The notes beneath the pieces are model-generated. The model did not search any database, was not told the DNA's origin, and saw only the letters and a list, made by a program, of their open reading frames with translations. Shown here piece by piece: positions 2,003 through 61,722 of a DNA stretch of 64,000 nt. The DNA is taken from IMG/VR virus record IMGVR_UViG_3300045988_141197. One strand, 5' to 3'. The position numbers and the translations under genes were made by a program. Each line of letters begins with the position of its first letter. Position 1 is the stretch's first letter. Source of the DNA: a virus.

Positions 2003-5000
2003 GTGGAAGAAGAAAAATTTTATACAATTATCTTACGTCATGATGAAAGTACTAAATGGATGATAAATGATCCTATCTTAGCACTTGGTGAATATGGTGT
2101 AGAAGATGACACTCATAGAATTAAACGTGGTGATGGTAAGTCAAAATGGTCTGAATTAAATTATGAACATTTTGGACTAGAATACATGATAACATATGCA
2201 AATTTACAAGGTAAAGTAGAAGATAATGAAGCTTTAAAATCTGCTTTAGATACTAAAATTTCATATGAAGTATTTAATGATATTCAAAATTCAGTAGTAG
2301 CAGGTATTACTATTAATTCAGAAGATGGAAAAATTGGAAAAATAACTAAAACTACTAAAGATGTTGCAACAGCTGGAACAAAACAAAATTATTTATTAAT
2401 TCAATCAGAAGATCAATCAATTCAAGGATTTTGGTCAATAGATGAAACTGGTATGAAAATATTAGATTTAAAAGCTAATGCTTCTATTGATGATTATACA
2501 CCTAAAAGAAAATATTATGTAGATCAAATATGCTTCTACGATAATAAATTATATAGAGCTATTACTGATTTTGAAGCAGGTGTTGTATTTAATCCTGAAC
2601 AATGGGTTATATTAGCTTCTCTTCATTCAAGTGATATTAGATATGATAATAAAATATCTGGTCTAGAATCTAAAACAGTAAAAACAGCATTAGATGAACT
2701 TAAAGATCTTGATGATGAAAAAGTTCAAAAAACAAGAAGACCTTATAAAGTTTATGGAACAAATGAAGATGGAGAGCAAATGCTATATGATAAAGATGAA
2801 CTAAGAACAGTTGATTCAGTTAATGGTATAGAAGCTAATCCAACTTCAAAAAATATACAAATTGATGCAGATGATATTAATTATGATGATGAAGCAAAAG
2901 TTAAACAAAGTATAAGAGAAGTTCTAGATTCAAAAGTAGATAAAGTTGTAGCTGGAGAAGGAGCTAAAATAGTTAGAGATGTAACATTAAATTATAACAA
3001 AGAAAATGGATCTATTGAATTAGTAGAAGATAAAGTTTCACTAAAAGATGGTTCATCTGAAGAACAAAGAACAAGTGTAGATGTAGTATCAGAACAAGAA
3101 TTAGCTAATGCCAAATCAGAATTACAAACAAACATTGATGCTAATAAACAAGAAATAAATAATAGAATAAATCAAGAAGTAGCAGGCTTAAATACTACTA
3201 TAGCAGCTAATAAAGCAGAAATTAATACTAAAGTAGATAACATAAAATCAGAAACTGATCAAACAATAGCTGATAATAAAGCTGATATAGAAGATAAGTT
3301 ACAAAAGGGATTAGATACAAAGATTGATAAAGACATTGCTGATAGCATTGTTGTAGATGTAAAGTTCTCTAATGAAGATGGTGAAAAAGTAAATGAACCT
3401 ACTTTAAAAATAACTTCTAAAAATACTGATACAGAGACAGAAGTTATTCATCATATGCATTTTAGACAAAAAGGTGATTTAAATATTACTAGAGAAAATG
3501 ATCATTTATTATTTGATTCAAGTGTAATCGATTTAAAAGTTAGGACTAATGCTGATAAAATTGCTACACATGATACTGAAATAGCTGCTTTACAAGAGCA
3601 TGATGTAAATCATGATAGACTATTAGCAACTCATACTGAACAAATAGCAAATCATGAAACTAGAATGCAACAAGCAGAAGCAGATATTAGAAGAATAGAT
3701 GTAGAATTAGATGATTTAGATGCTAAGATAGAAAATGAAACAACAAATAGAAAAGTAGCAGATGCCAAAATAGAAACAGATATATCTAGAAATGCATTAA
3801 ATATAGAAAATAATGCAGCAGCTATTAGAAAAAATGCTGATAATATAATTGAATTAAATGACTTGTTACAAGAAAATGTAACAAACTTAACTCAATCTAA
3901 AGCTGACAAAGTATTTGCAGAAGAAACTGATAATAAAGTTGTAGGATCAGTGGAGCTAGGTGAAACTGAAAATAATACAATAGCAAAAATGACTTTAAAA
4001 AGTGTATCACCAGTAGATGGAACACCTAGTTCAGAAGTAATTGAATTTAAATCTACTGATAATACTTTAGTATCAGTCCCTATAACAGATAAAGAAGGTA
4101 ATATAACTGGTTATGATTTAGCAACTAATTTAGATATAGATGTTAATTACTTTGTAACTACACAAATATTAAATACAACTATTCCAAGTGAAAATACAGT
4201 TTCATTTGATAGTTTAACATCTACAGATAAAGAAAAAGTAGAATTACATGATATTATTTCTGATTCTGAAGGTACTTGGTCAAGAGTAAAATCTATAGAT
4301 GAAGAAGCTAGAACTTGCGTAACTATAACTTATGCAAAACATGCTCAAGCTGTATGGGGAACTATAAAAGGTAATATAGCAGATCAAGCTGATTTACAAG
4401 AAGCTTTGGATAAAAAGATTGATGAATCTATTGCACCTGTCTTAATTTCAGGAATTAGAATTGATGATAGTGGATCTAATAGAGAAAACTTAGATAGTAT
4501 CAAATTTAAGTGGGATTATCAACCAACAGATGGTGCAGGTGGATATACAACACAAGGTGGTGTATTTGCTAAATCAGATTCTATACTATTAACTAAAGGT
4601 CAAGATGTAAATCCAACTACATATAGATTTAAAGTAGAAGCAGAAGGAGTAGAATTCAAACCAGAAGAGTCTGGGTTAACAAGTACTTTACTAGCTTCTG
4701 CAATAAGAGAATTAAAAGCATTAGATGATGAAAAAGTATTAATAACTGATTTTGAAACATTTAAAACAGAAAATACAACAAATATAAATAATCTAATAAA
4801 TACAGCAAAATCAGAATTACAAACTAATATAAATAATGAGGCAACAGCTAGAGAAACAAAAGATAATGAAATATTATCATCTATTAAGGATTTACAAATG
4901 CAATTAAACCTTCAAATAGTTGATTATACAGATGCTATTGATAATGTAACACCAATTACAAAATTTATAACATATACAAGGGATGATGGTGTTATGTTAA

Positions 5001-5128
5001 TGGCTATGAATATTTGGAATAGTTCATGGGTATTTAGTGCTACTGAACCAACAGTATATGAAAACTTTATGAAAGATGTAGAAAATGGTTATATGAAACT
5101 TATTGGAATACCTGAGCAGGTAGGTTAA
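2003..5128 (+). CDS. long tail fibre-like protein with central coiled coil (1041 aa)
   Basis: GTG start after RBS aggagg. Long heptad-rich segment (residues ~350-640). Lies upstream of the fibre pair and is followed by a terminator. Confidence 0.55.
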   Translation: MEEEKFYTIILRHDESTKWMINDPILALGEYGVEDDTHRIKRGDGKSKWSELNYEHFGLEYMITYANLQGKVEDNEALKSALDTKISYEVFNDIQNSVVAGITINSEDGKIGKITKTTKDVATAGTKQNYLLIQSEDQSIQGFWSIDETGMKILDLKANASIDDYTPKRKYYVDQICFYDNKLYRAITDFEAGVVFNPEQWVILASLHSSDIRYDNKISGLESKTVKTALDELKDLDDEKVQKTRRPYKVYGTNEDGEQMLYDKDELRTVDSVNGIEANPTSKNIQIDADDINYDDEAKVKQSIREVLDSKVDKVVAGEGAKIVRDVTLNYNKENGSIELVEDKVSLKDGSSEEQRTSVDVVSEQELANAKSELQTNIDANKQEINNRINQEVAGLNTTIAANKAEINTKVDNIKSETDQTIADNKADIEDKLQKGLDTKIDKDIADSIVVDVKFSNEDGEKVNEPTLKITSKNTDTETEVIHHMHFRQKGDLNITRENDHLLFDSSVIDLKVRTNADKIATHDTEIAALQEHDVNHDRLLATHTEQIANHETRMQQAEADIRRIDVELDDLDAKIENETTNRKVADAKIETDISRNALNIENNAAAIRKNADNIIELNDLLQENVTNLTQSKADKVFAEETDNKVVGSVELGETENNTIAKMTLKSVSPVDGTPSSEVIEFKSTDNTLVSVPITDKEGNITGYDLATNLDIDVNYFVTTQILNTTIPSENTVSFDSLTSTDKEKVELHDIISDSEGTWSRVKSIDEEARTCVTITYAKHAQAVWGTIKGNIADQADLQEALDKKIDESIAPVLISGIRIDDSGSNRENLDSIKFKWDYQPTDGAGGYTTQGGVFAKSDSILLTKGQDVNPTTYRFKVEAEGVEFKPEESGLTSTLLASAIRELKALDDEKVLITDFETFKTENTTNINNLINTAKSELQTNINNEATARETKDNEILSSIKDLQMQLNLQIVDYTDAIDNVTPITKFITYTRDDGVMLMAMNIWNSSWVFSATEPTVYENFMKDVENGYMKLIGIPEQVG

Positions 5129-5190: not shown

Positions 5191-5901
5191 ATGAAAGTTA
5201 AATTTAGTAGATGTCAATCAAATAGTTTAACAGATGTACCTATTATAGATGGACAATTAATATTTGTAAAAGATAATGGTGAATGTTACTTAGATGTAGG
5301 TTCTCAAAGAGTTAGAATTGAAGATAAAATTTTAATAGAAAAAGTAACATCATTAGAAACTTTAATAGATACATATAAAGAATCAATAGATGAACAGTTA
5401 AATACTCATACTGAAGAAATAGCACAATTAAGACATGATATAGCTAATATAGAAGCAATGCATTCATTTAGTGAATATGAAGGATTAGTTACAAATGGAA
5501 CTACAGTTGAATTTTTTGAAAGTGTAAAAGCATTAAACTTAAATCCAGGAACGATAATATTAGGAGGAACTAGATTAACAGATATTGAAGATGTAGCTCC
5601 TGGAATGTTAAATGAAGAAATGAAAGTTGAAATATATTCAAATAATGTATTTCATGCAACAATGACTTCAACTGATATCGAACCATATGAATGGATTATT
5701 CAATATTGGAAAGGTAATGAAAAATGGAGACCTCTTATAGCTTCTGCTAGTGAGATTGTAATAGATACATCAGGAACTTCATTAGAAGCCACTACTGTAC
5801 AGGAAGCTGTAGTAGAATTAGATACTAAAGTAGGAGATATAAGTGCTTTATTAGATAAAATAAATGGTTCTGGTACTGAATCAGAAGGAGGTAATGCTTA
5901 A
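5191..5901 (+). CDS. fibre-associated protein (236 aa)
   Basis: ORF directly upstream of the fibre pair. Same position as the small ORF 59917-60147 upstream of the second fibre pair. Confidence 0.5.
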   Translation: MKVKFSRCQSNSLTDVPIIDGQLIFVKDNGECYLDVGSQRVRIEDKILIEKVTSLETLIDTYKESIDEQLNTHTEEIAQLRHDIANIEAMHSFSEYEGLVTNGTTVEFFESVKALNLNPGTIILGGTRLTDIEDVAPGMLNEEMKVEIYSNNVFHATMTSTDIEPYEWIIQYWKGNEKWRPLIASASEIVIDTSGTSLEATTVQEAVVELDTKVGDISALLDKINGSGTESEGGNA

Positions 5902-7598
5902 TGGAAGAAACAAATAATGAATCAATAGAGAAAAAACTGGCTTACCTTAATGAAACAAAAGGATTAATTAAATCAGCAATTATAAATAAAGGACAAGAAT
6001 TAACAGATGAAACACCTTTTAGAGATTATGTTCAAAAAATAGATGATATAGAAACAGGTGTAGATACTTCTGATGCTACTGCATTAGCAAGTGATATAGC
6101 TGCCAATAAAACAGCATATGCAAATGAGAGGAAAATTACAGGTACACTAATAGATAATAACAGTCAAATAACATTAGACAATCAAGACGATATTACTGCA
6201 AAAACTGGAAGTGATTATCTTGAAGTACATACTAATATAGGAACAGATACTATTGTTAGAGCTGATAATCAAATCAGTATAAGACCTTCTTTTGAAAAAG
6301 CAGCAGAAGCTATAGGACTTACAGCAGATAAAATAATAGAAGGAAATACTATACTTGGTATAGAAGGAACAGGTAAAACAAGTGAAGATTTACAAGAACA
6401 ACTAGACGCACAAGATACAGTTATACAACAATTACAAGATGAGTTAGCAAATAAAACAAGTGGCTCTGCTAAACCTAATGTATTTATGCAAGAAACAGAA
6501 CCAACTACTAAAAATGGTATTTGGCTTAAAGGGAGTTACCAAGTAGATAATATAGCTGCAGATGAAAATATATTTGCAGGAGAGGAATGGAATACTACTA
6601 AAATGGCTAGTTTAAAAGTAATTCCTTATAATTTTTATGGAGGTTCAGCTATACCAATAGAGACAAATGTATATTTATTTGGTGGTAGTGGCAATAGTAC
6701 AGCAGCTTATAAATATGATACATTGACAGATACATATACGCAATTAACAAATATTCCTTATGAATTTTATGGTTCAGTTGCATCTATAAGAACAGACATA
6801 TATTTATTTGGTAGTGATAGTAGTTCATATCATAAATATGCTTATAAATATGATACATTGACAGATACATACACAAAATTAACAAATATTCCTTATGAAT
6901 TTTCTAGTGGTTCAGTTGTATCTATAGGAACAAATATATATTTATTTGGTGATTTTACTAAGCGTAATATAGCTTATAAATATGATACATTGACAGATAC
7001 ATATACGCAATTAACAAATATTCCTTATGAATTTTATGGTTCAGTTGCATCTATAAGAACAGACATATATTTATTTGGTAGTGATAGTAGTTCATATCAT
7101 AAATATGCTTATAAATATGATACATTGACAGATACATACACAAAATTAACAAATATTCCTTATGAATTTTCTAGTGGTTCAGTTGTATCTATAGGAACAA
7201 ATATATATTTATTTGGTGATTTTACTAAGCGTAATATAGCTTATAAATATGATACATTGACAGATACATATACTAAATTAACTGATATTCCATATGATTT
7301 TTATCGAAGTTCAGCTATATTTACTGGAACAGATATATATTTATTTGGCGGAGCTGCAAACCAAACTAAAGTACAAGTAATGACAATGATACCAAATGAT
7401 TATGGTAATAACTCAATAGTAATATCTCAAGGTGGGTTTACAAAGAAGACAAACATAGCTGATTATGGAATACAAAATGCAAAATTCTATTATGATAAAG
7501 TATATTATCAAAATGAAAATGGAGAATTATTAAACACAATACCAACCTATAATGGAAACGGAACAGAATGGATTAAAATTTCAGGAGGTGAAGAATAA
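5901..7598 (+). CDS. tail fibre / receptor-binding protein with Kelch-like beta-propeller repeats
   Basis: The N-terminal ~190 aa are homologous to ORF 60170-60793 (shared blocks GKTAY.NG.K..G and TSEDLQ.QLDAQD). Six repeats of ~44 aa follow, of the form AYKYDTLTDTYT.LTNIPYEF......IYLFG. Confidence 0.6.
   Translation: MEETNNESIEKKLAYLNETKGLIKSAIINKGQELTDETPFRDYVQKIDDIETGVDTSDATALASDIAANKTAYANERKITGTLIDNNSQITLDNQDDITAKTGSDYLEVHTNIGTDTIVRADNQISIRPSFEKAAEAIGLTADKIIEGNTILGIEGTGKTSEDLQEQLDAQDTVIQQLQDELANKTSGSAKPNVFMQETEPTTKNGIWLKGSYQVDNIAADENIFAGEEWNTTKMASLKVIPYNFYGGSAIPIETNVYLFGGSGNSTAAYKYDTLTDTYTQLTNIPYEFYGSVASIRTDIYLFGSDSSSYHKYAYKYDTLTDTYTKLTNIPYEFSSGSVVSIGTNIYLFGDFTKRNIAYKYDTLTDTYTQLTNIPYEFYGSVASIRTDIYLFGSDSSSYHKYAYKYDTLTDTYTKLTNIPYEFSSGSVVSIGTNIYLFGDFTKRNIAYKYDTLTDTYTKLTDIPYDFYRSSAIFTGTDIYLFGGAANQTKVQVMTMIPNDYGNNSIVISQGGFTKKTNIADYGIQNAKFYYDKVYYQNENGELLNTIPTYNGNGTEWIKISGGEE
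6705..7238 (+). repeat. perfect tandem direct duplication, 2 x 267 bp
   Basis: 6705-6971 and 6972-7238 are identical at nucleotide level, each encoding two propeller blades. Confidence 0.85.
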
Positions 7599-8593
7599 TG
7601 AGTACAGGAACAAATAGAGAAAGATTAGAACAAAATAATACCTTACTAGAGGACATAAAAAACGAGGTAAGCAATTTACCTAATTTTATTGACACAACAG
7701 ATGCAACAGCAACAGCAGAAGATATTTTAGAAGGAAAAACAGCTTATTCAAATGGTGAAAAATTAGTTGGGACTATGTCTGAGAACCCTAATAATACCTT
7801 TATTGATTTTGGTACATCAACTTCGGCAAATTATATATATAAATACATAAAAAGTATAAACCAATTAAATACAAGTAATGTTACTAATATGGGATATATG
7901 TTTTCAGATTGCTCAAAATTAACGACAATATCATTATTTGATACAAGTAATGTTACTAACATGCAAAATATGTTTTATTATTGCTCATCATTAACAACAA
8001 TACCATTGTTAAATACAAGTAAAGTTACTAGCATGCAGAATATGTTTTCAAATTGTTCATCATTAACGACAATACCATTGTTAAATACAAGTAAAGTTAC
8101 TAACATGTATAATATGTTTTATTATTGCTCATCATTAACGACAATACCATTACTGAATACAGGTAATGTTATTAACATGCAGAATATGTTTTATTATTGC
8201 CCATCATTAACGACAATACCATTATTAGATACAAGTAAAGTTACTAGCATGAGTGGTATGTTTGCTCATTGTGATATATTAACAACAATACCATTATTAG
8301 ATACAAGTAAAGTTACTGACATGAGTATTATGTTTTCAAATTGCTCATCATTAACAACAATACCATTATTAAATACAAGTAATGTTACTAGCATGCAGAA
8401 TATGTTTTCTAATTGTCCAAATTTATCAGATGAAAGTTTAAATAACATTTTAGCAATGTGCACAAATGCTACAAAAATAACTTCAAGTAAAACATTAAGC
8501 CGAATCGGTTTGACATCAGACCAAGCAACAAGATGTCAATCATTATCAAACTATGAAGCATTTACAGCAGCTGGATGGACTACAGGATATTAA
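7598..8593 (+). CDS. tail fibre tip protein with BspA-type 26-residue leucine-rich repeats
   Basis: N-terminus is homologous to ORF 60799-61458. About 8 tandem repeats L(N/D)TS.VT.M..MF..CSSLTTIPL match the bacterial surface-protein 26-residue repeat (DUF285/BspA-like). Confidence 0.6.
   Translation: MSTGTNRERLEQNNTLLEDIKNEVSNLPNFIDTTDATATAEDILEGKTAYSNGEKLVGTMSENPNNTFIDFGTSTSANYIYKYIKSINQLNTSNVTNMGYMFSDCSKLTTISLFDTSNVTNMQNMFYYCSSLTTIPLLNTSKVTSMQNMFSNCSSLTTIPLLNTSKVTNMYNMFYYCSSLTTIPLLNTGNVINMQNMFYYCPSLTTIPLLDTSKVTSMSGMFAHCDILTTIPLLDTSKVTDMSIMFSNCSSLTTIPLLNTSNVTSMQNMFSNCPNLSDESLNNILAMCTNATKITSSKTLSRIGLTSDQATRCQSLSNYEAFTAAGWTTGY
7880..8440 (+). repeat. coding tandem repeats (~78 bp period)
   Basis: Imperfect nucleotide repeats underlying the 26-aa repeat units. 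Confidence 0.7.
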
Positions 8594-8677: not shown

Positions 8678-8710
8678 AAAGATAGAACTTAAATTTCTAT
8701 CTTTATTTTT
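8678..8710 (+). terminator. rho-independent terminator
   Basis: Hairpin aaagatagaacttaaatttctatcttt followed by a T-run. Confidence 0.6.
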
Positions 8711-8712
8711 AT

Positions 8713-8727
8713 GTAAAATATTAATAG
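8713..8727 (+). promoter_or_regulatory. promoter-like motif GTAAAATATTAATAG
   Basis: Copy of the conserved motif upstream of RBS aggagg and ORF 8743. Confidence 0.4.
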
Positions 8728-8742
8728 GAGGTATAAATAACT

Positions 8743-27833: not shown

Positions 27834-27912
27834 CTGGGAGTTGGGGAGTTGGTCACCCCGCCAGCTTTGGGAGCTGGAGAACTCGTGAGTTCGAATCTCA
27901 CCTCTCAGACCA
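27834..27912 (+). tRNA. tRNA-Pro (anticodon TGG)
   Basis: Manually folded cloverleaf. C1-G72 acceptor pair, D-arm gggg/cccc, anticodon loop tttggga, T-arm gtgag-ttcgaat-ctcac. CCA is encoded. Confidence 0.7.
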
Positions 27913-27954
27913 AAAATCTAGCAATATAATATAGAAGGGAGGAAGTTAAAAGTT

Positions 27955-28551
27955 ATGTTTAGGAAATTAAAAGATTGGAATTTTGAAAGAAAAATGGCTA
28001 ATCAGAGAAAAAAGAAAAAATTCGCTGATTGTGACTGTTGGGGAATGCATTATTGGCTTAGTGATACATTTGCAGACATGATATTAAATCTTCGTGATAT
28101 GAAACATGGTGCACCTGAGTTAGAATTTGAAGAATATAATACATTACCTGCAGAATGGTTAGATAAAGAATTAGCTATTTATAAAGAAAAACAAATTAAA
28201 GAAGGATATACATATGAAATAAATATATTCACTAAATGGTATATTATATTAACAAGAATAGCTTATTGTTTAAAACAAGCTAATGATGAAATAACTATTA
28301 TTGATAATGAATATAGAGAAGAATTTGACCGAGTTGTTTGGGGAGATGGATCTTTTTTAGATCATATGGTACCTTGTAAGTTTGATTCCCAAGGTAAACC
28401 TACTTGCTATGAACTAAAAACAAATGAACCTCCTGAAGAACTTAAAGAAAAATATTTTAATAGAGAACAAGAAATATTTGAATATAGAAATAAAATGAAA
28501 GATGAAGCATTTGATCTAATTAAAAAATATTTCTGGAATTTATGGGATTAA
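27955..28551 (+). CDS. hypothetical protein
   Basis: ORF with RBS gggagg. Confidence 0.45.
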   Translation: MFRKLKDWNFERKMANQRKKKKFADCDCWGMHYWLSDTFADMILNLRDMKHGAPELEFEEYNTLPAEWLDKELAIYKEKQIKEGYTYEINIFTKWYIILTRIAYCLKQANDEITIIDNEYREEFDRVVWGDGSFLDHMVPCKFDSQGKPTCYELKTNEPPEELKEKYFNREQEIFEYRNKMKDEAFDLIKKYFWNLWD

Positions 28552-28781
28552 TGAAAATAACAAAGAACAGATCTTAATAAGACATAAGATGTTATTAATA
28601 AATAAAGGAGCTTAATAATGAAAAAACTAATTTATTTTATAAAACAACTATTTTGTGATCATATTTATGGAGATGGTATAATGAACCCTTTTGTAGATCA
28701 ATATGGAAATCATTCAGCTGTTTACCTTGTATAAAATGTGGTCATAGAAAGTTTAAAACTTTTGAAAAGAAATAATTAAAT

Positions 28782-28871
28782 GACACAATGGCAGAGTTTG
28801 GTTTAATGCACCAGTCTTGAAAACTGGCAGTCGGAAACGGCTCGTAGGTTCAAATCCTACTTGTGTCGCCA
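28782..28871 (+). tRNA. tRNA-Ser (anticodon TGA), type II
   Basis: Acceptor gacacaa/ttgtgtc, anticodon stem ccagt/actgg with loop cttgaaa, long variable arm, T-arm gtagg-ttcaaat-cctac. CCA is encoded. Confidence 0.7.
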
Positions 28872-28896
28872 GAATAAATATTAAAGGAGTTATCAT

Positions 28897-29775
28897 TTGA
28901 GTGGGATCAATTTAAAAGAACAAGAATATAGCAGTAGTCAAAATGAACTAACTGTTGAAGATAAAGATAAAATATTAAGAATAGATAATAAATTACCTCA
29001 AATCATATTACCTCAATCTAAAATAGGAATGTTTATAGATTGGTATAATAATGATCTAAGATTATTAGGTACTTTACCTGAAGCTTATAATGAAGGTTAT
29101 TTAATTATTGAAAATGATATAATTCAAATTGATATTAGTAAACAGTCTGAATATATTAAAAGTTTAGCAAAACAGTTAAATGGTACATATCGTCAAGTTG
29201 AAAATCGTTTAAAATATTTTATAGAAGGTCTTGAAAAAGTTACTATGTATTTTAAATATGCTGATAATAATATACAGATTTGGTTATATGGTAAAGACAA
29301 TACTATTGTATCTAAAATATCATTTCAAGTGCAAGAAGGAGAAAATAGTTTAGTTGCTGATAGATATATAGATGAATTTACTAACTGGGATGATTTATTA
29401 AATGAATTTAATTTTTACTGTGTAATATTACTAACATCTAGTTTATGGTATATAGCTACTACAACAAAGACTACTAAATACTATTATGAAGAAAATAGAC
29501 CTAGATATACATATTCAGCTAATGAAAAATCTATAAAATCAATATCTAAACACAAGACTATAAATACACCTATTTATGATTTTAATAAGATTAAGAAAGT
29601 TAAAGTTGAAAGTCTAATTAAGAAAAGAAAAGGATGGACATATTCACATTCTTTTCAAGTACATGGACATTATAGACATTATAGTAATGGTAAAACTGTA
29701 TTTATTAATTCTTATATTAAAGGAAAAAATAAAGAACTACAAAGTCAAATAATAACATTAAATCCAAAGGAGTAA
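28897..29775 (+). CDS. hypothetical protein
   Basis: TTG start after RBS aaaggag. Confidence 0.4.
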   Translation: MSGINLKEQEYSSSQNELTVEDKDKILRIDNKLPQIILPQSKIGMFIDWYNNDLRLLGTLPEAYNEGYLIIENDIIQIDISKQSEYIKSLAKQLNGTYRQVENRLKYFIEGLEKVTMYFKYADNNIQIWLYGKDNTIVSKISFQVQEGENSLVADRYIDEFTNWDDLLNEFNFYCVILLTSSLWYIATTTKTTKYYYEENRPRYTYSANEKSIKSISKHKTINTPIYDFNKIKKVKVESLIKKRKGWTYSHSFQVHGHYRHYSNGKTVFINSYIKGKNKELQSQIITLNPKE

Positions 29776-29780
29776 TTAAA

Positions 29781-30128
29781 ATGATTAGTTTAGAACAATT
29801 AATGAAAGATTTAAAAAGAGAATTTATAGTAGATGAAACATTAAAAGCTTATTTATATGAAAATAAAATTGAGTTTGTTGATTATACTTCTCCTATAGAT
29901 TTAGAAAATGGAGATAAATTAGAAGATTTCTATGGTAATCTTTGTACTATATATCTTGATAAAGAGAACAAAATTTCAACTATAGAAAACTCTTGTATTA
30001 ATTTAATAACTCCTGTTAATGTAAAAGTTATAAATTTTCTAACTAGTTTAATTGGAGAAGAGATTGAAGCTTATGATCAATATCCTAAACTTCCTTCTAT
30101 TAGAGAATTAGATTGTAAAGAATTATAA
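29781..30128 (+). CDS. hypothetical protein
   Basis: ORF with RBS aaggag. Confidence 0.45.
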   Translation: MISLEQLMKDLKREFIVDETLKAYLYENKIEFVDYTSPIDLENGDKLEDFYGNLCTIYLDKENKISTIENSCINLITPVNVKVINFLTSLIGEEIEAYDQYPKLPSIRELDCKEL

Positions 30129-30173
30129 AAATATTAGACTTTTATTATTAACATGTTATATATTATATAATAT

Positions 30174-30259
30174 GGTGGAGTGGCCGAGTGGTTAAAGGTG
30201 GTAGTCTGTAAAACTATTCTCATACGAGTTCATAAGTTCAAATCTTATCTCCACCACCA
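30174..30259 (+). tRNA. tRNA-Tyr (anticodon GTA), type II
   Basis: Acceptor ggtggag/ctccacc, anticodon loop ctgtaaa, long variable arm, T-arm ataag-ttcaaat-cttat. CCA is encoded. Confidence 0.7.
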
Positions 30260-30416
30260 CTGAAAGAAGATAATTAGATTTAAGGTAATTGCAAGCCTTT
30301 AAGCAAACCTATTAATAATAATTGTGAGACTGGCCAGATATAGTCAATTTGAAATAGGAATAAAGATACCAAATATATTATCTTCTTTCTTCATTAATAA
30401 TTTGGAGGTAGAATAT

Positions 30417-30656
30417 ATGACATATACAGAATGGTTAGATAAAAATTGGGAAAAAGATAATATGTTTCCACCTTGTTTAGAACCTCAAGAAGCTTTATCA
30501 TTTTTAGAAAAATATTTATTAGGAGAAGATTATTATATAGTTAATCCTATGCCTAATATTCAAGCAAATTGTGAAGTTGTCCATGATATATTATATAAAT
30601 ATTCTAGAAAATATAGAAAAGAAGTAAAAGAAAGAAATAAAATAAGAAAGAAATAA
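30417..30656 (+). CDS. hypothetical protein
   Basis: ATG at 30417 after RBS ggaggtag. The ORF track extends the frame back to 30324. Confidence 0.4.
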   Translation: MTYTEWLDKNWEKDNMFPPCLEPQEALSFLEKYLLGEDYYIVNPMPNIQANCEVVHDILYKYSRKYRKEVKERNKIRKK

Positions 30657-30661
30657 TTTAT

Positions 30662-30735
30662 GCAGGTTTAGTGTAACGGCAGCACTTTGATCTCCAAAAT
30701 CAACAGTTATGGTTCAAATCCATAAACCTGTGCCA
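30662..30735 (+). tRNA. tRNA-Trp (anticodon CCA)
   Basis: Acceptor gcaggtt/aacctgt with a G1-U72 wobble. Anticodon stem ttgat/atcaa with loop ctccaaa. T-arm tatgg-ttcaaat-ccata. CCA is encoded. Confidence 0.65.
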
Positions 30736-30901
30736 AAGATCTTTTACTAGAGAAGATCTTTTCACTGTATGTAATTGATTGTTCATTTTACCTATAAGAA
30801 GGACTCACCTCCTTTCTGGAAAAATGAGAGAAGATGAAGAAGAATATAGATATTATATAATTTGTTTCTAGTGCTTATTATATAATATCAAAACTTTATA
30901 T

Positions 30902-30978
30902 AGCGATATAGCATAGTTGGCTAATGCAGGGCGTTCATACCGCCAAGATCATTGGTTCGAATCCAATTATCGCTACCA
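30902..30978 (+). tRNA. tRNA-Met/Ile2-type (anticodon CAT)
   Basis: Acceptor agcgata/tatcgct, D-stem gcat/atgc, anticodon loop ttcatac, T-arm attgg-ttcgaat-ccaat. CCA is encoded. Confidence 0.65.
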
Positions 30979-31250
30979 CTGGGGTTCGGTTATATCTGTT
31001 GCAATGAAGTGCAAAATGCTAGCATTGTTCCTTCGTAACGGATGAAAAAAGATCTTATATATGACACCGATATAGACGCCTCGGCCCAGTTCGTACCGCC
31101 TCACTCTTTAGGTACCCTACAGGAATTTGTGAGGTCATAACTGTAGGTCAGGTGTACACGGCAACTTTGTCTCGCGTAAACGTTGTGTTGAGCAAGAAGT
31201 ACATTAAGAAGCAACGTGACTGCTAGGAGAGACTAGCAAAATATTATTTA
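30979..31250 (+). ncRNA. GC-rich structured-RNA candidate (unknown class) or leader of the flotillin gene
   Basis: ~270 nt at roughly 45-50 % GC against a ~28 % background. Several complementary pairs are visible: cctcac/gtgagg, ctacag/ctgtag, aacgttg/caacgtg, plus palindromes ggtacc and gtgtacac. No ORF is present. Confidence 0.3.
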
Positions 31251-31267
31251 TTCGGAGGTAGAGATAA

Positions 31268-32737
31268 ATGATAACCTTAATCATTGTTGTAGCAGTGATT
31301 ATAATTCTTACAATATTCTTATTTATGAGCTATGTTAAATGTCCACCAGATATGGTTTATTTAATATCAGGTCTAAAGAAAGAACCTAGAGTTATAATAG
31401 GAAAAGCTGCTTTAAGAGTTCCATTTTTTGAAAGAGTGGATAAACTAACTCTTGAGTTAATACAAATAGATGTAAAAACGTCAAGAGTACCTACAGCTGA
31501 TTTCATTAATGTAGATGTAGATGCTGTAGCAAATGTTAGAATTCCTAACAATCCTGAATTAATACAAGTTGCAGCTAGACATTTTTTGAATCAAGATTCA
31601 AATTATATAGCTAGAAATGTACAACAAGTATTAGAAGGAAATATGAGGGAAATAATTGGACAAATGAATTTAAAAGAATTAGTTAATAATAAACAATTAT
31701 TTTCTCAAAAAATTCAAGAAAATGCAAAAGATGATATCAATAATATAGGATTAGAAATTGTTAACTTAAATGTTCAAAGCTGTACTGATGAAAATAATGC
31801 TATAAATGATTTAGGTATAGATAATTTATCTAAAATCCAAAAAGATGCAAAAATTGCAAAAGCTGAAGCTGATAGAGATGTTCAAGTTGCACAAGCTAAA
31901 GCGGCTAAAGAAGGAAATGAAGCTGATGCACAAGCTAAAGCTGAAATAGCAAAACAAAATAAAGATTTAGCTTTAAAACAATATGAGTATCAAATTGAAC
32001 AAGATAAGAAAAAAGCTGAAGCTGATACAATATATGAAATCCAAAAAGCTGAGAGACAAAAACTAATTAATGAAAATACAGTACTTGCAGAAGTTGCTAA
32101 AACTGAAAAAGAAACTGAATTAAAAGAAAAACAAGTTGCTTTAAGAGAAAAACAATTAGATGCAGAAGTTAGAAAAACAGCTGATGCGGAAAAATATAAA
32201 GCTGAAGTAGAAGCTGAAGCTCAAAAGCAAGTAACAATACAAAGAGCTCAAGCTGAATTAGAAAAAGCTAAACAAGAGGCTCAAGCTAAGATAGAAATCG
32301 CAAAAGCTAATAAAGAAGCAGCAACTCTAGAGGCTGAAGCAATTAAAGCAAAAGCATTAGCTGAAGCTGAAGGAATAAAAGCTAAATTAGAAGCTGAAGC
32401 TGCTGGTATAGAAGCAAAAGGTATAGCAGAAGCAAAAGGTATTGAAAAGAAGGCTGAAGCTCAAGCAAAAATGCAACAAGCATCAGTAGTAGAAATGATT
32501 ATTAATAAATTACCTGATATTGCTAAAGAAGTATCAACTCCTTTATCTAATATTGATAGTATTACAATGTATGGTGATCAATCAACCCAACTTGTGGAAA
32601 ACAATACACAAAAAATTGATAAAATTTTAAAAGTAGCTCAAGATAGTTTAGGTATTGATTTAAAATCAATAATTGCAGGTTATGCTGTTGGTAAATTAGG
32701 TAATAATCAAAAAGATAATAATAAAGAAGAAGAATAA
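31268..32737 (+). CDS. floT: flotillin (FloT/YuaG-type SPFH domain protein)
   Basis: N-terminal transmembrane segment and SPFH domain. Ala/Glu/Lys-rich coiled coil with AEAEA repeats. C-terminal LPDIAKEVSTPLSNIDSITMYG matches the FloT LP..AK....PLSNIDKITV motif. Confidence 0.85.
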   Translation: MITLIIVVAVIIILTIFLFMSYVKCPPDMVYLISGLKKEPRVIIGKAALRVPFFERVDKLTLELIQIDVKTSRVPTADFINVDVDAVANVRIPNNPELIQVAARHFLNQDSNYIARNVQQVLEGNMREIIGQMNLKELVNNKQLFSQKIQENAKDDINNIGLEIVNLNVQSCTDENNAINDLGIDNLSKIQKDAKIAKAEADRDVQVAQAKAAKEGNEADAQAKAEIAKQNKDLALKQYEYQIEQDKKKAEADTIYEIQKAERQKLINENTVLAEVAKTEKETELKEKQVALREKQLDAEVRKTADAEKYKAEVEAEAQKQVTIQRAQAELEKAKQEAQAKIEIAKANKEAATLEAEAIKAKALAEAEGIKAKLEAEAAGIEAKGIAEAKGIEKKAEAQAKMQQASVVEMIINKLPDIAKEVSTPLSNIDSITMYGDQSTQLVENNTQKIDKILKVAQDSLGIDLKSIIAGYAVGKLGNNQKDNNKEEE

Positions 32738-32768
32738 AATTTAGTGGGTGAAACTCCCGCTACTATAT

Positions 32769-32844
32769 TGAGGTATAGCCAAGCGGTAAGGCAATGGGTT
32801 TTGATCCCATGATTTCCTAAGTTCGAATCTTAGTACCCCAACCA
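32769..32844 (+). tRNA. tRNA-Gln (anticodon TTG)
   Basis: Very similar to Firmicute tRNA-Gln (tagccaagcggtaaggca D-arm). Anticodon stem atggg/cccat with loop ttttgat. T-arm ctaag-ttcgaat-cttag. One A-C mismatch in the acceptor stem. Confidence 0.65.
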
Positions 32845-32848
32845 ATAT

Positions 32849-33219
32849 AGTTCCTTAGCTCAGTAGGTTAGAGCGCTGTGTTTTTAAATTATTAAGAGGA
32901 ATAAAGTATGTTTAAATGTATATGTAATAGAGAGTTTTTAACACAAAATGGTCTTAATAGTCATAAAGGTAAATGTTCTGTTGTAAAACCTGATTTTATA
33001 CTTGATGATATATACATTGAAATAAAAGGTTACTTTACTGAAAAAGATAAAGCTAAAATTGACCAATTTCCTTATAAGATAAAAGTATTATTTAAGGAAG
33101 ATATGAAATTATATTTAGATTATGTGAAATCTAAATATGGTAAAACATTTTATAATTTATATACACCTAAAACTTTAATAATTTAAAATCAATTGGTTCG
33201 ATTCCAATAGGAACTACCA
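32849..33219 (+). tRNA. split / interrupted tRNA gene (5' half 32849-~32886, 3' half ~33187-33219)
   Basis: The 5' segment agttcct-ta-gctc-agtaggtta-gagc has a perfect acceptor strand and D-arm. The 3' segment attgg-ttcgatt-ccaat-aggaact-a-cca has a perfect T-arm and a complementary acceptor strand. The two are separated by ~310 bp containing ORF 32908-33186. No matching 3' anticodon-stem strand was found. Confidence 0.45.
32908..33186 (+). CDS. small Zn-finger protein inserted in split tRNA, possible (D/E)xK nuclease
   Basis: C-x-C...H-x4-C N-terminus followed by LDDIYIEIKGY (D...E-I-K motif). RBS aagagg upstream. Confidence 0.4.
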   Translation: MFKCICNREFLTQNGLNSHKGKCSVVKPDFILDDIYIEIKGYFTEKDKAKIDQFPYKIKVLFKEDMKLYLDYVKSKYGKTFYNLYTPKTLII

Positions 33220-33341
33220 GAGGCTGGGTAGCTCCCAGATATGCGCGAGTATAAAGACGAGGCACCTCCGTTGAAAATAAAATTAAAACCTCGTACATTA
33301 TAATAGTGCTTTAACTGATTATTATAAAAGGAGATATTACA

Positions 33342-33704
33342 ATGGATAAATTTGCATTTGATTGGTTTCAAAAACAACTAGATAAAAGAAAAGAACCTAA
33401 AAAGTATTTATTATGGATAGATGATTTAAGACCTATACCAAATCATTATATTGATAATTATCATATAGTTACAGCTAGATCTTATAATGAAGCTATCCAT
33501 GAATTACATAGATTTAGATATAATATAATTTGTTTAGATCATGATTTGGGAGAAGAAAAAACAGGATATGATGTTTGTAAATACATTATAGAAAATAATA
33601 TCCCTTGTGATGAATATAGAATTCATACAAGTAATCCTGTTGGTAGAAAGAATATGACTGATCTTTTATCAAGATATACAAATGCTATTATAAGACAATG
33701 TTAA
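33342..33704 (+). CDS. CheY-like receiver-fold protein (atypical)
   Basis: LLWIDD acidic pair, LDHDLG putative phospho-acceptor Asp, HTSNP, K. Confidence 0.3.
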   Translation: MDKFAFDWFQKQLDKRKEPKKYLLWIDDLRPIPNHYIDNYHIVTARSYNEAIHELHRFRYNIICLDHDLGEEKTGYDVCKYIIENNIPCDEYRIHTSNPVGRKNMTDLLSRYTNAIIRQC

Positions 33705-33890
33705 AAAATATATGGAGGGGTAGTTTAAATAAAACGAATAGTCTGATAAACTATAACTATTATACTATATAATCCGGATATATAGATTAAATATAATAGT
33801 GGTAATAAGAAACTATATCAATTGCAAGCCTTATTACTTGATATGGATAATAGGTGAAACTTAAATTCCATCCCCTTACAATTTAATAAA

Positions 33891-34118
33891 GTGAGTGATA
33901 ATATGGAAGAAAATTTATATGATAAACAATGTATTATGTGTGGTAAGATATATACCAGTAAAGGTAAAGCTCCTGTAGGTGAATGTCCTGAATGTCTATC
34001 TAAAGAAGAATATTTCTGTAATAGATGTGGTCAACCAATTGACTATTGGGAATATAATAATAGTGTAGAGGGCTATTGTGAAGATTGTTTGGAAGAGGAA
34101 GAGCTAGAAAATGAATAA
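33891..34118 (+). CDS. small zinc-ribbon protein
   Basis: CIMCG...CPEC and CNRCG...CEDC motifs. Confidence 0.45.
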   Translation: MSDNMEENLYDKQCIMCGKIYTSKGKAPVGECPECLSKEEYFCNRCGQPIDYWEYNNSVEGYCEDCLEEEELENE

Positions 34119-34283
34119 TAAAGAAAAATTACCAAAATATGTAAATAGTGATTGGAAGAATAAAGGATTAAAAGCATTTATTTTATTTATAATGCTACTT
34201 ATAGAACTTCCATTCATACCATTTGTATATTTATGGGCTTGGATAGATGATATAAGAGATAAGTTCAAAAAATCTTAATCTAT

Positions 34284-34353
34284 GGTCATATAGTTTAATG
34301 GTAAAACATACTACGTAATGTAGATAGATAATGGTTCGATTCCATTAAGACCT
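34284..34353 (+). pseudogene. tRNA-like element / degenerate tRNA
   Basis: Good D-arm (gttt-aatggta-aaac) and T-arm (aatgg-ttcgatt-ccatt). The anticodon region folds only as ctac-gtaat-gtag with a 5-nt loop, and the acceptor stem has a mismatch. Confidence 0.3.
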
Positions 34354-34581
34354 GAAAAAGTGCTTTAGTGTATTGAGTACATAACAGAAAATACACAAAT
34401 CAATTAAAATAATTGGAGAACTTATATACTAACAGTTTAATCTCCTAAAAAACTTTATAGATATGTATAGAAGTGAGTTAGTACAGAGTATTCTATACGA
34501 AGGTAATGTCCACTCTATTGTACTTGAAAGTTAATTGTTTATGAAAGTACAAAATAAATATTATCATTTGGAGGTAATCAA

Positions 34582-34893
34582 TTGAATAATACTATTGAAC
34601 TTAAAGATATAATTATTATTAGCAATAATAAAATATTTAACAATATAATCAATTATAATACAACTTTTGAATCTTTATATGCATGGATAGGGGATAATAC
34701 TAGGTATAAACTTGGGAAAATTTATGATACTATTACCATAAAAAAGAATTATATAAAAAATATAGCTATGTTAAATGAATCTATTTCAACCTTTATTATT
34801 TTTAACTGTGCTTATAATCAAAAAATTATTAAATATTATGATACTAATAAAGAAGCCTATAGTGCTTATAAAATGTATCAGCAATTAATATAA
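34582..34893 (+). CDS. hypothetical protein
   Basis: TTG start after RBS ggaggtaa. Confidence 0.35.
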   Translation: MNNTIELKDIIIISNNKIFNNIINYNTTFESLYAWIGDNTRYKLGKIYDTITIKKNYIKNIAMLNESISTFIIFNCAYNQKIIKYYDTNKEAYSAYKMYQQLI

Positions 34894-35002
34894 TCTATAT
34901 AGGTGTTTTGGACTGATAGATATATCCTGTTCTGTTCGACTCAGAGTAATAATGTTGGAACTGTAAAAAATCAGATCGTTACTGATTGCCTATATTTTAT
35001 AT

Positions 35003-35091
35003 GTCAAGATGGGTGAGTTGGTTTAAACCAGTTGTCTACTAAACAACCGAAGTGTAAGCTTCCGTGAGTTCGAATCTCACTCTTGACGCCA
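35003..35091 (+). tRNA. type-II tRNA, Ser-like, anticodon ACT (unusual A34)
   Basis: Acceptor gtcaaga/tcttgac, anticodon stem gttgt/acaac with loop ctactaa, long variable arm, T-arm gtgag-ttcgaat-ctcac. CCA is encoded. Confidence 0.55.
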
Positions 35092-35097
35092 TAATAT

Positions 35098-35184
35098 GCA
35101 GATGTGGTGAAATTGGCAAACACACAGGACTTAAAATCCTGCGAGGTAAAACTCTTGTCGGTTCAAGTCCGACTATCTGCACCA
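35098..35184 (+). tRNA. tRNA-Leu (anticodon TAA), type II
   Basis: Acceptor gcagatg/tatctgc, anticodon stem cagga/tcctg with loop cttaaaa, long variable arm, T-arm gtcgg-ttcaagt-ccgac. CCA is encoded. Confidence 0.7.
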
Positions 35185-41056: not shown

Positions 41057-41079
41057 AAGATATCTTGGAGGTAGAAATA

Positions 41080-44000
41080 TTGAAAGAAGATAAAAACCAA
41101 AATTTAGATGTACTATCTACTTTGACTAATGAGGAAAAATTAAAAGTCAAAGAGATATTAGCACAAATATCAGATAAGGGTAAATCTAAAGAATTAGATA
41201 ATTTATATTACGATGATTATGAAGAAATACCTGTAGATCTTGAAACTTTTTTAAGTAATGATTTATATTTAGGTAATTACACAAATCATGGTAAAGATAT
41301 TTATGAAACATGGAAAAAAGAATTAGCATATGTTCATAATCCTGCAACTTTTTGCGATCAGTGGGCTATTACAGGAAGTACAGGAACAGGTAAAGCAAGT
41401 CCATTAAGATCAAAAGTTTTTACAGCTAATGGTTATATAAAAATGGGAGATATACAGATAGGCACTAAAGTTATAAATGGAAAAGGGTATGAAACAGAGG
41501 TTACGCATATATATCCACAAGGTAAATTACCTGTTTACAGAATAACTTTTTCTGATAGGACATATATAGAATGCGCGGATAATCATTTATGGCAGGTAAC
41601 TGAATATGGCAAAGGTAGAGCTAAAGAAAATTTAGTATTAAATACTCTACAATTAAAAGAAAATTTAAATAAAGGTTATAAGTATAGAATACCTTTAGCT
41701 GTAATAGATTGTTGGAATAGTGATACTGAAATAGATCCTTACTTATTGGGATGTTTAATTGGTGATGGATGTTTACAAACTGATAGTATATCTATTTGTA
41801 CTCCTGAGCAAGATATAAAAATAAAAATAGAAAATATTGTTACTTCAATGGGATATAGCTTCAATTATATTGCTCGAGATAGTTATGGCATTCGTGCCAA
41901 TGGTAAATTTGGATTTAACAGTAATAAAGGCAGTATTAACCCTTTAAAAGATTATCTTAATTCTTTAGGATTACTATGTAAATCGGTGGATAAACATATT
42001 CCAAAAGAATATTTATATACTACTGTAGAAAATAGAATAAAATTATTACAAGGATTATTTGATACAGATGGGTGGGTTTGTAATAATGGAAAGGCTAGAT
42101 CAGTATTGATATGGAATACTTCTAGTCCTCAACTTTCTGAAGATTTTGCATTTTTAGTAAGATCTTTAGGCGGAACTGACACTGTAGTTAGAAAAAAAGC
42201 AAAATATTGTACAAAAAATTCTAAAGATTATATAGAATGTAATGATTCATATCAACATACCATAAAATTTAGCAATGATATATTACCTTTTAGCTCTAAT
42301 AAACATAAATCCAAGTATATAGAACCTCAAAATAAAGCTATTCGTAGGATTATAAATATTGAACATATAGGTGAGGAAGAATGTCAGTGTATTGTTGTGA
42401 AAAGTGACGATCATACATATTTAATGGATAATTTAACTGTAACTCATAATTCAACAGTATCTACTTATTCTTTATGCTATGAGTTATATAAGTTAATGTG
42501 TTTAAAAAATCCTAATAGATTTTATCTAGATGCTAATGAAACTATATGGATTTTATTCTTTAACCTTAATTTAAAATTAGCTGAAAAGACAATGTGGGGT
42601 AAATTTCAAAAAGCTTTACAAATGTCTCCTTGGTTTATGGAAAGAGGAACTGTAACGGGTAGAACAAATTTAGTTTATCAACCTAATAAAGATATTAAAT
42701 TAGGTATAGGATCTACTGAAGAACATGCATTATCTGTAGCTGTTATGTTTTGTGCTATAGATGAGATGTCTTTTGGAGATAACGATAATGTAGAATATAT
42801 GCAAGCAGGTATGATGCAGATATATAATCAGTTATATCTACGTCTATCTTCTCGTTTTTCTAAAGCAGGTAGAATACAAGGTAGAATGTATTTAATTTCA
42901 TCGGCTAAATCAACTAATGCTGTATTAGAATCATTTATTAGAGATAATGAAGGACAACCTGGAATGCATGTATCTAGATATAAACAATGGGAAGTATTAC
43001 CTGCATCTAAATTTTCTGGTAAGTGGTTTAAATTAGCTGTAGGAAATGAATTATTATCTAGTTATATAATGGGTACTAATGTAACAGATGAACAAGTAAA
43101 AGAAGCTGAAGAACAAGGTTATCAGGTTATTGATGTTCCTTTAGAAACGTTACATAGATTTGAAATGGACTTAAATAGAACATTAATAGATACATGTGGT
43201 ATTTCTGTTCAATCAAGTTATAAATACATTCCATATAGAATAGTTGAACCTTGTATTGGTAATGGTTCTAATCCTTTTAAAGATGAAATTATTAAAACAG
43301 GATTAAAGGATAAATTACAGATAAAGGACTTCTTTATATCAGAACTTGTTCCTGAAATGTTATATTCTAAAAAATTATATATTCATTGCGACTTATCAAA
43401 ATCAGGAGACATGACAGGTATAAGTGCTGTAGCTGTATTAGGTTACAAAAATCAAGAAAGATATGATGATACAGGTCAAACTAATACATTAAAAGAAATT
43501 GTATTTCGTCATGTATTTTCAGTTGGATTACAATGCCCACCTAATGATGAGTTAAGTATGATTAAGGTCAAGGACTTTCTTCATTATTTAAAATATGACT
43601 TAGGATGGAATATAGCAGGAGTAAGCTGTGATGGTTATCAATCCCTGATGTTATTACAAAGTTTACAATTAGATGGTTTCACTGTAAAAGAAGTATCTAT
43701 GGATATTATAAAAAATAAAGAATGTGTAGGCTACACAGCATTTAGAAATGTACTTGTAGAGCAAAGAATTAAATTATTAAAATTACATACATTATTAAAA
43801 GAAATAACAAATTTAGAAAAGAATGATACTACTGGAAAAGTAGATCACCCAAAGCAATGTTTAATAGGTGATACTAAAATTAAAATGTTGGATGGTAAAT
43901 CTAAAACAATATTAGAATTATTAAGTGATTATGAAAATAATATACCTAATTATGTATATACTTTTAATGAAAAAACTTTGAAAATAGAGCCTAAATTAAT

Positions 44001-46484: not shown

Positions 46485-46520
46485 AAGATACTAGAGAATT
46501 AGTTCTCTAGTATCTTTGTT
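46485..46520. terminator. bidirectional rho-independent terminator
   Basis: Palindrome aagatactagagaa-tt-agttctctagtatctt between convergent genes. Confidence 0.6.
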
Positions 46521-61458: not shown

Positions 61459-61629
61459 GAGGTAATTATTAATGATTAAAAATGAATTTGATATAGATTC
61501 CCTTTATGATGCAGCTAGAAAAGCTATGAGTAAAGTAGGATCTGTAGAATATATGGGAATTAAATTTAATGAAGCTGATGTAGATAGTTTGTATAACTAT
61601 ATAAAAAGAAGTTAAATTATAAATTAAAA

Positions 61630-61711: not shown

Positions 61712-61722
61712 GAGTGGTAATT

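Follow-up and report, generated by a model that had tools for sequence, protein, structure and literature searches.

Paralogous modular proteins encoded at two loci of a ~200-kb gut phage as candidate receptor-binding fibres

Why would a phage carry two sets of related fibre-like genes about 52 kb apart, and what could the encoded proteins do? This question is raised by a 64,000-nt stretch of viral DNA (IMG/VR record IMGVR_UViG_3300045988_141197, hereafter the window). One set lies behind a large fibre gene (cluster A: A0, 5191-5901; A1, 5901-7598; A2, 7598-8593) and the other behind a gene for a baseplate J-like protein (cluster B: B0, 59917-60147; B1, 60170-60793; B2, 60799-61458). All six genes are on the plus strand, and the coordinates given for them in the initial annotation of this DNA were all correct. 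The sequences compared here are all metagenomic. We propose that A1, A2, B1 and B2 form one family of modular, fibre-like virion appendages of the receptor-binding or adhesin type, belonging to a ~200-kb contractile-tailed gut phage, and we assign this reading a probability of about 0.62.

The initial annotation had noticed that A1 resembles B1, and A2 resembles B2, at the N-terminus, and had suggested pairwise alignment as a check. By pairwise BLASTP both similarities were significant (A1 and B1, 46.8% identity over 188 aa, E 1e-36; A2 and B2, 52.8% over 72 aa, E 1e-16). Similarity also extended across the pairs, as A1 aligned with B2 (44.5% over 128 aa, E 1e-21) and with A2 (39% over 51 aa), and B1 aligned with B2 (35.8% over 120 aa). 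These alignments show that the two gene pairs are true paralogues. A recent gene conversion between A1 and B1, prompted by an 86-nt tract of 87% identity, was considered and found to be unsupported: identity is highest, at 82-84%, where the residues are most constrained, and identity at third positions carries no information when the genome has 27% GC.

Alignment of the four proteins revealed a common set of modules. Two kinds of N-terminal adaptor were distinguished. The N1 adaptor (A1, aa 1-49; B1, aa 1-47) has the consensus LxYLxETKxLIKxAIINKGQ...FRxYxxKI and was modelled as a helical hairpin; the N1' adaptor (A2, aa 1-27; B2, aa 1-35) has the consensus MSxGTNxERLxQNN... and was modelled as a single long helix. 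All four proteins contain the M motif (DTSDATATAxDIxxGKTAYxNGxKxTGT), after which sits a variable insert of ~50 residues. A2 lacks the L motif, IGLTADKIIEGNTILGIEGTGK, which A1, B1 and B2 contain; A1 and B1 also have a coiled coil (TSEDLQxQLDAQD...) in common. Among the proteins of the window, M and L are confined to these four. Since M comes straight after the preceding L in multi-repeat homologues (P0087, P0095), we regard M and L as the two halves of one repeating unit, M-insert-L. It had been suggested that an internal module, IGLTADKIIxGNTILGxEGT, moved between the paralogues; this motif occurs in A1, B1 and B2 and is absent from A2 alone, so that within the window it is a shared element.

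The M-insert-L unit was examined by structure prediction. In the AlphaFold2 model of B2 (pLDDT 80.5; 87-94 over residues 40-145) it appears as a compact beta-rich domain, and in the model of B1 (pLDDT 67) M and L each form a short helix plus a beta-hairpin, flanking the insert. Structure comparisons found no solved structure resembling the adaptor and shaft modules, and Foldseek with the low-confidence B1 model gave meaningless matches only. The nearest viral models to the unit in BFVD are metagenomic proteins labelled 'tail protein'. No Pfam model covers the unit. Its family comprises 11,887 cluster representatives at E ≤ 1e-3 (1,078 at ≤ 1e-30), and its members reach 2,122 aa, contain up to 19 matched stretches and end in adhesin-type domains, namely DUF285, Lcl_C (lectin-like) and Kelch. 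Among 50,697 deposited phages, megablast gave no match; tblastn with B2 gave one, to a distant metagenomic phage record in which the module lies in a gene annotated, by an automated label, as tail protein. Single-protein pattern scans of viral contigs with B1, A1 or the large fibre found nothing, and a literature search on the sequence motifs returned irrelevant papers only.

Beyond the shared modules, the proteins differ in their distal parts. In A1 (565 aa), N1 is followed by M (aa ~54-82), the insert (83-133), L (134-157), the coiled coil (158-188), a linker, six Kelch blades (aa ~246-500) and a C-terminal part of ~65 aa. The initial annotation had read the distal part as a Kelch-like propeller, and this was upheld by Pfam. 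Of the families tested (PF24681, PF01344, PF13964), all scored above their cutoffs (PF24681, 81.5 bits against 50; Kelch_6, 65 bits against 25.3; Kelch_1, 49.8 bits against 20.1). Six Kelch repeats are visible in the sequence, and the matching solved structures are the KLHL12 and KLHL17 propellers (E 4e-6 to 1e-5). Two of the blades form a 267-nt unit that is present as a tandem duplicate at 6612-7145 (copies 6612-6878 and 6879-7145, 90% identical); Tandem Repeats Finder reported a period of 267, 2.4 copies and 95% matches.

A2 (331 aa), whose start codon overlaps the stop codon of A1 (ATGA), consists of N1', M (aa ~31-59), approximately eight leucine-rich repeats (LRR) of 24 aa and a C-terminal cap ending in GWTTGY. 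The repeats are encoded by a 72-nt tandem array at 7864-8419 (7.7 copies). A2 belongs to DUF285 (PF03382; 203 bits against a cutoff of 25, in four stretches), and its closest solved structures are BspA-like LRR surface proteins, namely 4fs7 (E 3e-13), 4gt6 and TpLRR 6mlx (range E 3e-13 to 4e-5). Pfam LRR_5 (PF13306) gave no match to A2 at E up to 0.1 and was seen only in proteins of relatives. Judged by the solved structures, the label 'BspA-type LRR' in the initial annotation is acceptable.

For the B pair, short unrelated domains had been described, and this holds for B2 only. B2 (219 aa) has the N1' helix, one M-insert-L unit (aa ~38-143), a small beta knob of ~50 residues (aa ~150-196) and a terminal helix ending in SNDILG. 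B1 (207 aa) has N1, M (aa ~52-80), the insert (81-127), L (128-151), a coiled coil of ~35 residues (152-189) that it shares with A1, and a tail of only ~20 residues that ends in NNILGNVEV; no large distal domain is present. The notion of two adhesins is therefore too simple: there are clear binding domains in A1 and A2, a small knob in B2 and none in B1, plus the large fibre upstream of cluster A.

Comparison with close relatives provided direct evidence for the exchange of these distal parts. A 201-kb contig (L010) is 99.7% identical to the window on either side of the variation in cluster A; its A1 has one 267-nt two-blade unit fewer (476 aa, with four blades instead of six) and its A2 three LRR repeats more (403 aa). 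In two other contigs (L007 and L008), an identity of 99.3% stops at window nt ~6463, which corresponds to A1 residue ~187 and the end of the coiled coil. Past this break an unrelated 50-aa tail stands in place of the Kelch domain, giving a protein of 238 aa; a separate 488-aa Kelch-like gene comes next, its last residues resembling the A1 C-terminus, and an A2 homologue follows. Several allelic variants of A1 were found (P0068/P0108, P0109, P0110, P0106). In P0068 a short tail replaces the Kelch domain, and P0110 joins a different N-terminus without L to the same coiled coil and Kelch domain as in A1. Other proteins combine an N1-type N-terminus with an A2-type DUF285 end (P0074) or the B1 N-terminus with other ends (P0064, P0066). 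A conserved N-terminus with an exchanged distal part was thus found among close relatives in P0068/L007, P0110, P0074, P0064 and P0066. These comparisons show the module borders, swapping at the level of the population and a polymorphism in repeat number. The modular exchange claimed in the initial annotation is therefore directly visible in near-identical relatives, but the particular module named there has not moved within this genome.

More distant relatives extend this picture for both loci. At cluster A they keep the order of large fibre and A0, and the next two to at least five genes encode proteins of 238 to more than 1000 aa, each opening with N1, N1' or a third adaptor (...NLxPENIKxGVxxLGVxGT) followed by M/L units. 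An obligate pair of one N1-type and one N1'-type gene was considered; it is true of both clusters in the window and of cluster B in relatives, but it fails in these cluster A arrays. At cluster B, a relative 95% identical in its baseplate genes (L004) carries a further fibre-repeat gene (451 aa) ahead of B0 and ~1.7 kb of additional genes behind B2, and its B0-B2 region is only 84.7% identical to that of the window. Relatives with a 67%-identical baseplate protein retain B0 and have neither B1 nor B2 in the equivalent slot, so the comparison of cassette presence and absence proposed in the initial annotation did reveal a difference. In still more distant relatives a glycosyltransferase gene occupies the slot together with genes for an N1-DUF285 protein of 935-1068 aa, an orthologue of B1 and a protein of the B2 type; the last is 385-417 aa long, has two M-insert-L units and carries the knob seen in B2. 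B1 residues 53-151 are 72% identical to residues 141-239 of one such B2-type protein (L014_385; E 2e-48), and the B1 orthologue of the same phage is only ~49% identical to B1 of the window. Because the B1 unit is closer to a unit of a B2-type protein than to its own orthologue, whole units move between B1- and B2-type proteins, and it is this transfer that corresponds to the module movement proposed in the initial annotation. The glycosyltransferase is of family 2 and is encoded between B0 and the large N1-DUF285 protein (L012, 2570-3613; L014, 2950-3993); glycosylation of fibre proteins in such distant relatives is a possibility.

We then considered where the two clusters lie. The window is a slice of a ~200-kb genome: the same proteins, in identical or near-identical form, are encoded on 198-206-kb contigs from metagenomes of the human and animal gut. 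Hence the spacing of ~52 kb between the clusters is real and no artefact of where the window was cut. A circular genome of ~64 kb, which would have brought the clusters together, was rejected: identical proteins lie on the 198-206-kb contigs, and in relatives portal and thymidine kinase genes follow past the position of the window end. The window has a GC content of 27%, almost all of its genes are on the plus strand, and it contains eight tRNA genes. Its tail genes encode a sheath-like protein, a gp19-like tube protein, a T4 baseplate protein (PF12322), gp25-like and gp53-like wedge proteins and a hub protein with an M23 peptidase; judged by this gene content, the tail is contractile.

Both clusters lie in a tail or baseplate module, with weaker support for cluster A. 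Directly upstream of cluster B is the gene for a 728-aa protein that is probably of the baseplate J/wedge type (57677-59863, plus strand). It is preceded by a gp25-like gene (57230-57619, recognized by gp25 PHROGs) and the M23-peptidase hub gene (55589-57217). By tblastn the N-terminal half of the 728-aa protein matched, at ~26% identity, the annotated baseplate J of Bacillus phage HSE3 (E 5e-19) and a baseplate wedge protein of a Streptococcus phage (E 4e-15); it had no match to Pfam Baseplate_J and no informative PHROG. Its place after gp25 fits baseplate J. Downstream of cluster B, relatives encode a Tail_P2_I protein just past a papain-like peptidase gene, which places cluster B inside the baseplate module. 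A 47-codon gene remnant directly 3' of B2 (61473-61616, plus strand) matches exactly the C-terminus of a 107-aa gene, one of the extra genes of L004, where it is intact; the remnant marks a deletion of ~1.7 kb.

Cluster A is headed by the large fibre gene (1041 aa; 2003-5128, plus strand), whose N-terminal ~55 aa are of the tail-fibre/Mtd_N type. Residues 8-58 match PHROG tail fibre and tailspike families (E 2e-7 to 2e-3), and the score against Pfam Mtd_N was 21 bits, under the cutoff of 26.3. In every relative examined this N-terminus is kept upstream of A0 at 63-75% identity. The large fibre was also considered as an Mtd-like target of a diversity-generating retroelement. A repeat search found no long direct repeat linking the 3' end of its gene to another site; no search aimed at a reverse transcriptase or a template repeat was made. 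Non-structural-looking genes, for example a nucleotidyltransferase, come after cluster A.

The initial annotation had also described each pair as preceded by a small open reading frame (ORF). Both ORFs exist at the sites given, but they are not parts of a repeated cassette. A0 (236 aa, with a coiled coil at aa ~48-90 and an ending ...DKINGSG...) is a conserved frame gene ahead of the variable array, and B0 (76 aa, a small coiled-coil protein ending in ...ENINGETV) belongs to the conserved baseplate frame and is kept in relatives without B1 and B2. Their likeness is limited to a C-terminal stretch of ~45 aa, and paralogy is not demonstrable. We rejected A0 and B0 as homologous cassette leaders, the similarity being marginal and each gene being kept independently of the cassette. 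A C-terminal ...I(N/L)G... ending is common to A0 (near its end), B0, B1 and B2, in a longer form, ...I(N/L)G(E/N)xV, in B0 and B1, and is found in one further ORF among 83. This shared ending may be a common docking or assembly tag. A helix precedes it, and homologues have it too (for example L001, 12201-12485 and 15357-16211).

Transcription signals are arranged similarly at the two loci. With up to two mismatches allowed, a motif of 16 nt, GTAAAATAWTATTAGA, was found 14 times against an expectation of 2.1, mostly in intergenic positions just upstream of genes (motif scan; plus-strand copies at 8713, 17209, 18461, 18789, 23271, 35257, 45406, 47445, 50703, 61630 and 61693), and is probably a phage-specific promoter. 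It lies directly after A2 and directly after B2, and no copy is found within or just before either cluster. For this reason each cluster looks like the distal end of a longer operon, which agrees with co-transcription of the clusters and the structural genes ahead of them. Transcription of cluster A appears to end at 8680-8728 (plus strand), where an AT-rich hairpin was read by eye (AGATAGAA-loop-TTCTATCT) followed by a T-run; a terminator scan did not flag this hairpin, which has too few G-C pairs. The motif copy 3' of it is GTAAAATATTAATAGG (8713-8728). Behind cluster B two copies (61630-61708, plus strand) lie upstream of a holin-like gene at 61714.

Taken as virion proteins, A1, A2, B1 and B2 would be built on one plan: a short N-terminal adaptor, one or more M-insert-L units, sometimes a coiled coil, and a distal binding domain. 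In each unit, two helix-plus-beta-hairpin halves would clamp a variable beta insert. The adaptors would most likely fix the proteins at two kinds of tail site. Cluster B proteins are proposed to attach at the baseplate because they are encoded between the baseplate J and gpI homologues, and for cluster A proteins attachment would be together with, or to, the 1041-aa fibre and A0. The distal domains (the Kelch domain of A1, the DUF285/BspA-like LRR of A2 and the small knob of B2, with none in B1) would touch the host surface. Three sources of diversity are proposed: recombination at module borders, gain or loss of whole genes at two hypervariable slots, and slippage or unequal crossing-over within the tandem arrays that encode the Kelch (267-nt) and LRR (72-nt) repeats. 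We infer virion incorporation, N-terminal docking, oligomeric state and receptor binding. The reading as receptor-binding virion proteins docked at the baseplate by their N-termini, and the two specificities suggested in the initial annotation, draw on gene position, the adhesin-type end domains and analogy.

Several observations weigh against this proposal. The tail assignment of cluster A hangs on the neighbouring 1041-aa fibre alone, since the genes that follow look non-structural. B1 has no obvious binding domain, and its model is weak (pLDDT 67, pTM 0.29); the predictions are monomeric and hence silent on trimerisation. In BFVD and GenBank the label 'tail protein' was assigned automatically, the PHROGs that carry the module (38337 and 13589) are families of unknown function, and nothing was found that ties these proteins, by experiment or by homology, to a characterised receptor-binding protein. 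The differences in repeat number derive from short-read metagenome assemblies, to which partial collapse or expansion could contribute.

The proteins could be part of the virion without being primary receptor binders. As accessory whiskers, fibritin-like collars or decoration/adhesion fibres, they could bind mucus, glycans or plant and host debris, or act as sensors or assembly scaffolds, and the 1041-aa fibre and other baseplate proteins would set the host range. Such a role fits B1, which is essentially an adaptor joined to a shaft unit and a coiled coil of 35 residues; it also fits B0, a coiled coil of 76 aa, and the fact that related phages do without B1-B2. The C-terminal ending common to A0, B0, B1 and B2 suggests assembly or docking and not receptor binding, Kelch and LRR domains are generic protein or glycan binders, and dockerin repeats in the same virion module (see below) hint at binding to something other than a classical receptor. 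However, the turnover of distal domains and repeat numbers between strains fits selection on host range. In many myoviruses, with P2- and Mu-like gene order, the genes for receptor-binding proteins adjoin baseplate J, which is the slot of cluster B. We consider the accessory role rather unlikely, though it deserves to be kept in mind.

It is improbable that the proteins are not virion components at all, and act instead as effectors in the infected cell or after release by lysis, as surface mimics or as exclusion factors, directed at the bacterial envelope, competing phages or the animal host, the N-terminal modules serving oligomerisation or export. DUF285/BspA-like LRR proteins are typically bacterial surface proteins (according to the Pfam description and PDB names), non-structural genes border cluster A, and structure comparisons gave no characterised structural homologue. 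On the other hand, the conserved N-termini are hydrophilic, and the A and B sequences show neither a visible signal peptide nor a lipobox; the genes are co-oriented with, and directly follow, fibre and baseplate genes and have no promoter motif of their own; and the modules of the 11,887 cluster representatives often form long multi-unit arrays typical of fibre shafts. Still harder to sustain is an origin of the two clusters or their polymorphisms in metagenome assembly, through a chimeric contig or collapsed or expanded repeats. All data are metagenomic, and the Kelch (267-nt, 90-95% identical) and LRR (72-nt, ~83% identical) repeats are hard for short reads, yet both clusters are found on many independent ~200-kb contigs (B2 identical on 38, A0 at 97% identity on 33) with collinear flanks at 93-99.7% identity. 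Moreover, the 476-aa and 565/566-aa forms of A1, with four and six blades, each recur on several independent contigs, a diverged six-blade allele exists (P0106), and the breakpoints of the domain swaps are clean and located at module borders.

The arrangement can be compared with known fibre systems. In phages of Klebsiella and E. coli, a conserved N-terminal anchor or docking peptide is combined with an exchangeable depolymerase or tailspike domain in modular or branched systems (PMC6872550, PMC10408124, PMC13352976). The proteins described here likewise have short conserved adaptors and freely exchanged distal domains, with several such proteins per phage, breakpoints at the border of adaptor and domain, and exchange between near-identical genomes. 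Unlike those systems, they show no detected similarity in sequence or fold to the T7 gp17-type anchor, the T4 gp10-like branching domain or beta-helix depolymerases; their distal domains are Kelch and LRR binders and not enzymes, and their docking is only inferred. The shaft is also different, being a repeatable M-insert-L unit that is itself exchanged, and the genes occupy two loci 52 kb apart.

In T4, short fibres and fibritin are encoded close to the baseplate genes (genes 9-12 and wac), at a distance from the long-fibre cluster (genes 34-38), and the fibre tips are mosaic. The present phage resembles T4 in its contractile tail, gp25, gp19-like tube and PF12322 baseplate protein, and in the Portal_T4 protein of its relatives. 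One fibre cluster likewise lies at the baseplate genes, beside short coiled-coil proteins, and the other tens of kb away. However, the two clusters of T4 do not share paralogous N-terminal modules, and the A and B proteins gave no match to T4 fibre or fibritin families in Pfam or PHROG.

Kelch proteins are known from phage particles. Rak2-like phages (Alcyoneusvirus) and the jumbo phage CBB have many fibre genes and structural proteins with Kelch domains (PMC5259590, PMC10253068), and the Kelch protein CBB_552 was identified as a virion component by mass spectrometry (PMC5259590). A large genome, arrays of fibre-like genes and Kelch propeller proteins are common to these phages and ours, but lineage and host differ (a gut phage of 27% GC as opposed to phages of Enterobacteria), detectable homology is limited to the Kelch repeats, and the Kelch domain here is fused to a defined adaptor and shaft. 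Similarly, the C-terminal 250 aa of A2 are a bona fide DUF285 array like those of the DUF285/BspA-like LRR_5 surface proteins of Mollicutes, Firmicutes and Bacteroidota, but A2 has a phage-specific adaptor and the M motif, lacks a signal peptide or lipoprotein anchor, and is encoded at a fibre locus.

A conserved anchor, a swappable tip and several fibres per phage are textbook phage biology, and this general picture is unchanged. What appears to be new is descriptive: for a large, entirely unannotated family in uncultured ~200-kb gut phages, the borders of the modules are defined, along with three types of adaptor and a shaft unit that can be repeated. The domain swaps and the changes in blade and LRR number between genomes 99.3-99.7% identical are a clean natural example of module swapping, with variation seen in real time. 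With these modules, thousands of phage proteins now listed as 'hypothetical' could be annotated as probable components of host recognition; the modules also offer a route to predicting differences in host range between strains and, once a cultured representative exists, to the design of chimeric fibres. More speculatively, and with considerable doubt, N1, N1' and the third adaptor together with M-insert-L might be an undescribed, very widespread 'plug-and-socket' fibre kit of gut phages. Each adaptor would then have its own docking site, cargo proteins from distant loci would compete for it or co-occupy it, and slippage in the Kelch and LRR repeats would provide rapid host-range contingency within one population.

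Some further features of the window were recorded. In the baseplate block, a 630-aa protein (50828-52720) contains four dockerin type I repeats (90 bits), and residues 395-444 of the baseplate J homologue form a dockerin-like stretch (22.2 bits, slightly below the cutoff). For virion proteins this is unusual; possible explanations are a host that bears cellulosomes or docking that depends on calcium. The stretch 61714-63561, located between the genes of the baseplate J and gpI homologues, holds two membrane/holin-like genes and a papain-family (Peptidase_C1) gene. They form a lysis-like cassette within the tail module, and the peptidase may be an endolysin or a structural lysin.

The eight tRNA genes (Pro, Ser x2, Tyr, Trp, Met, Gln, Leu) are clustered at 27834-35184 with small ORFs between them. 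The single large minus-strand ORF (46499-47353, 284 aa) has the T4-baseplate-like gene on one side and a 1070-aa ORF on the other, and GC skew dips locally there. An ORF of 1441 aa (41065-45390), located between the genes for the tail tube and the baseplate, contains two intein-type insertions (Intein_splicing, 90 bits; LAGLIDADG_3; HNH_3).

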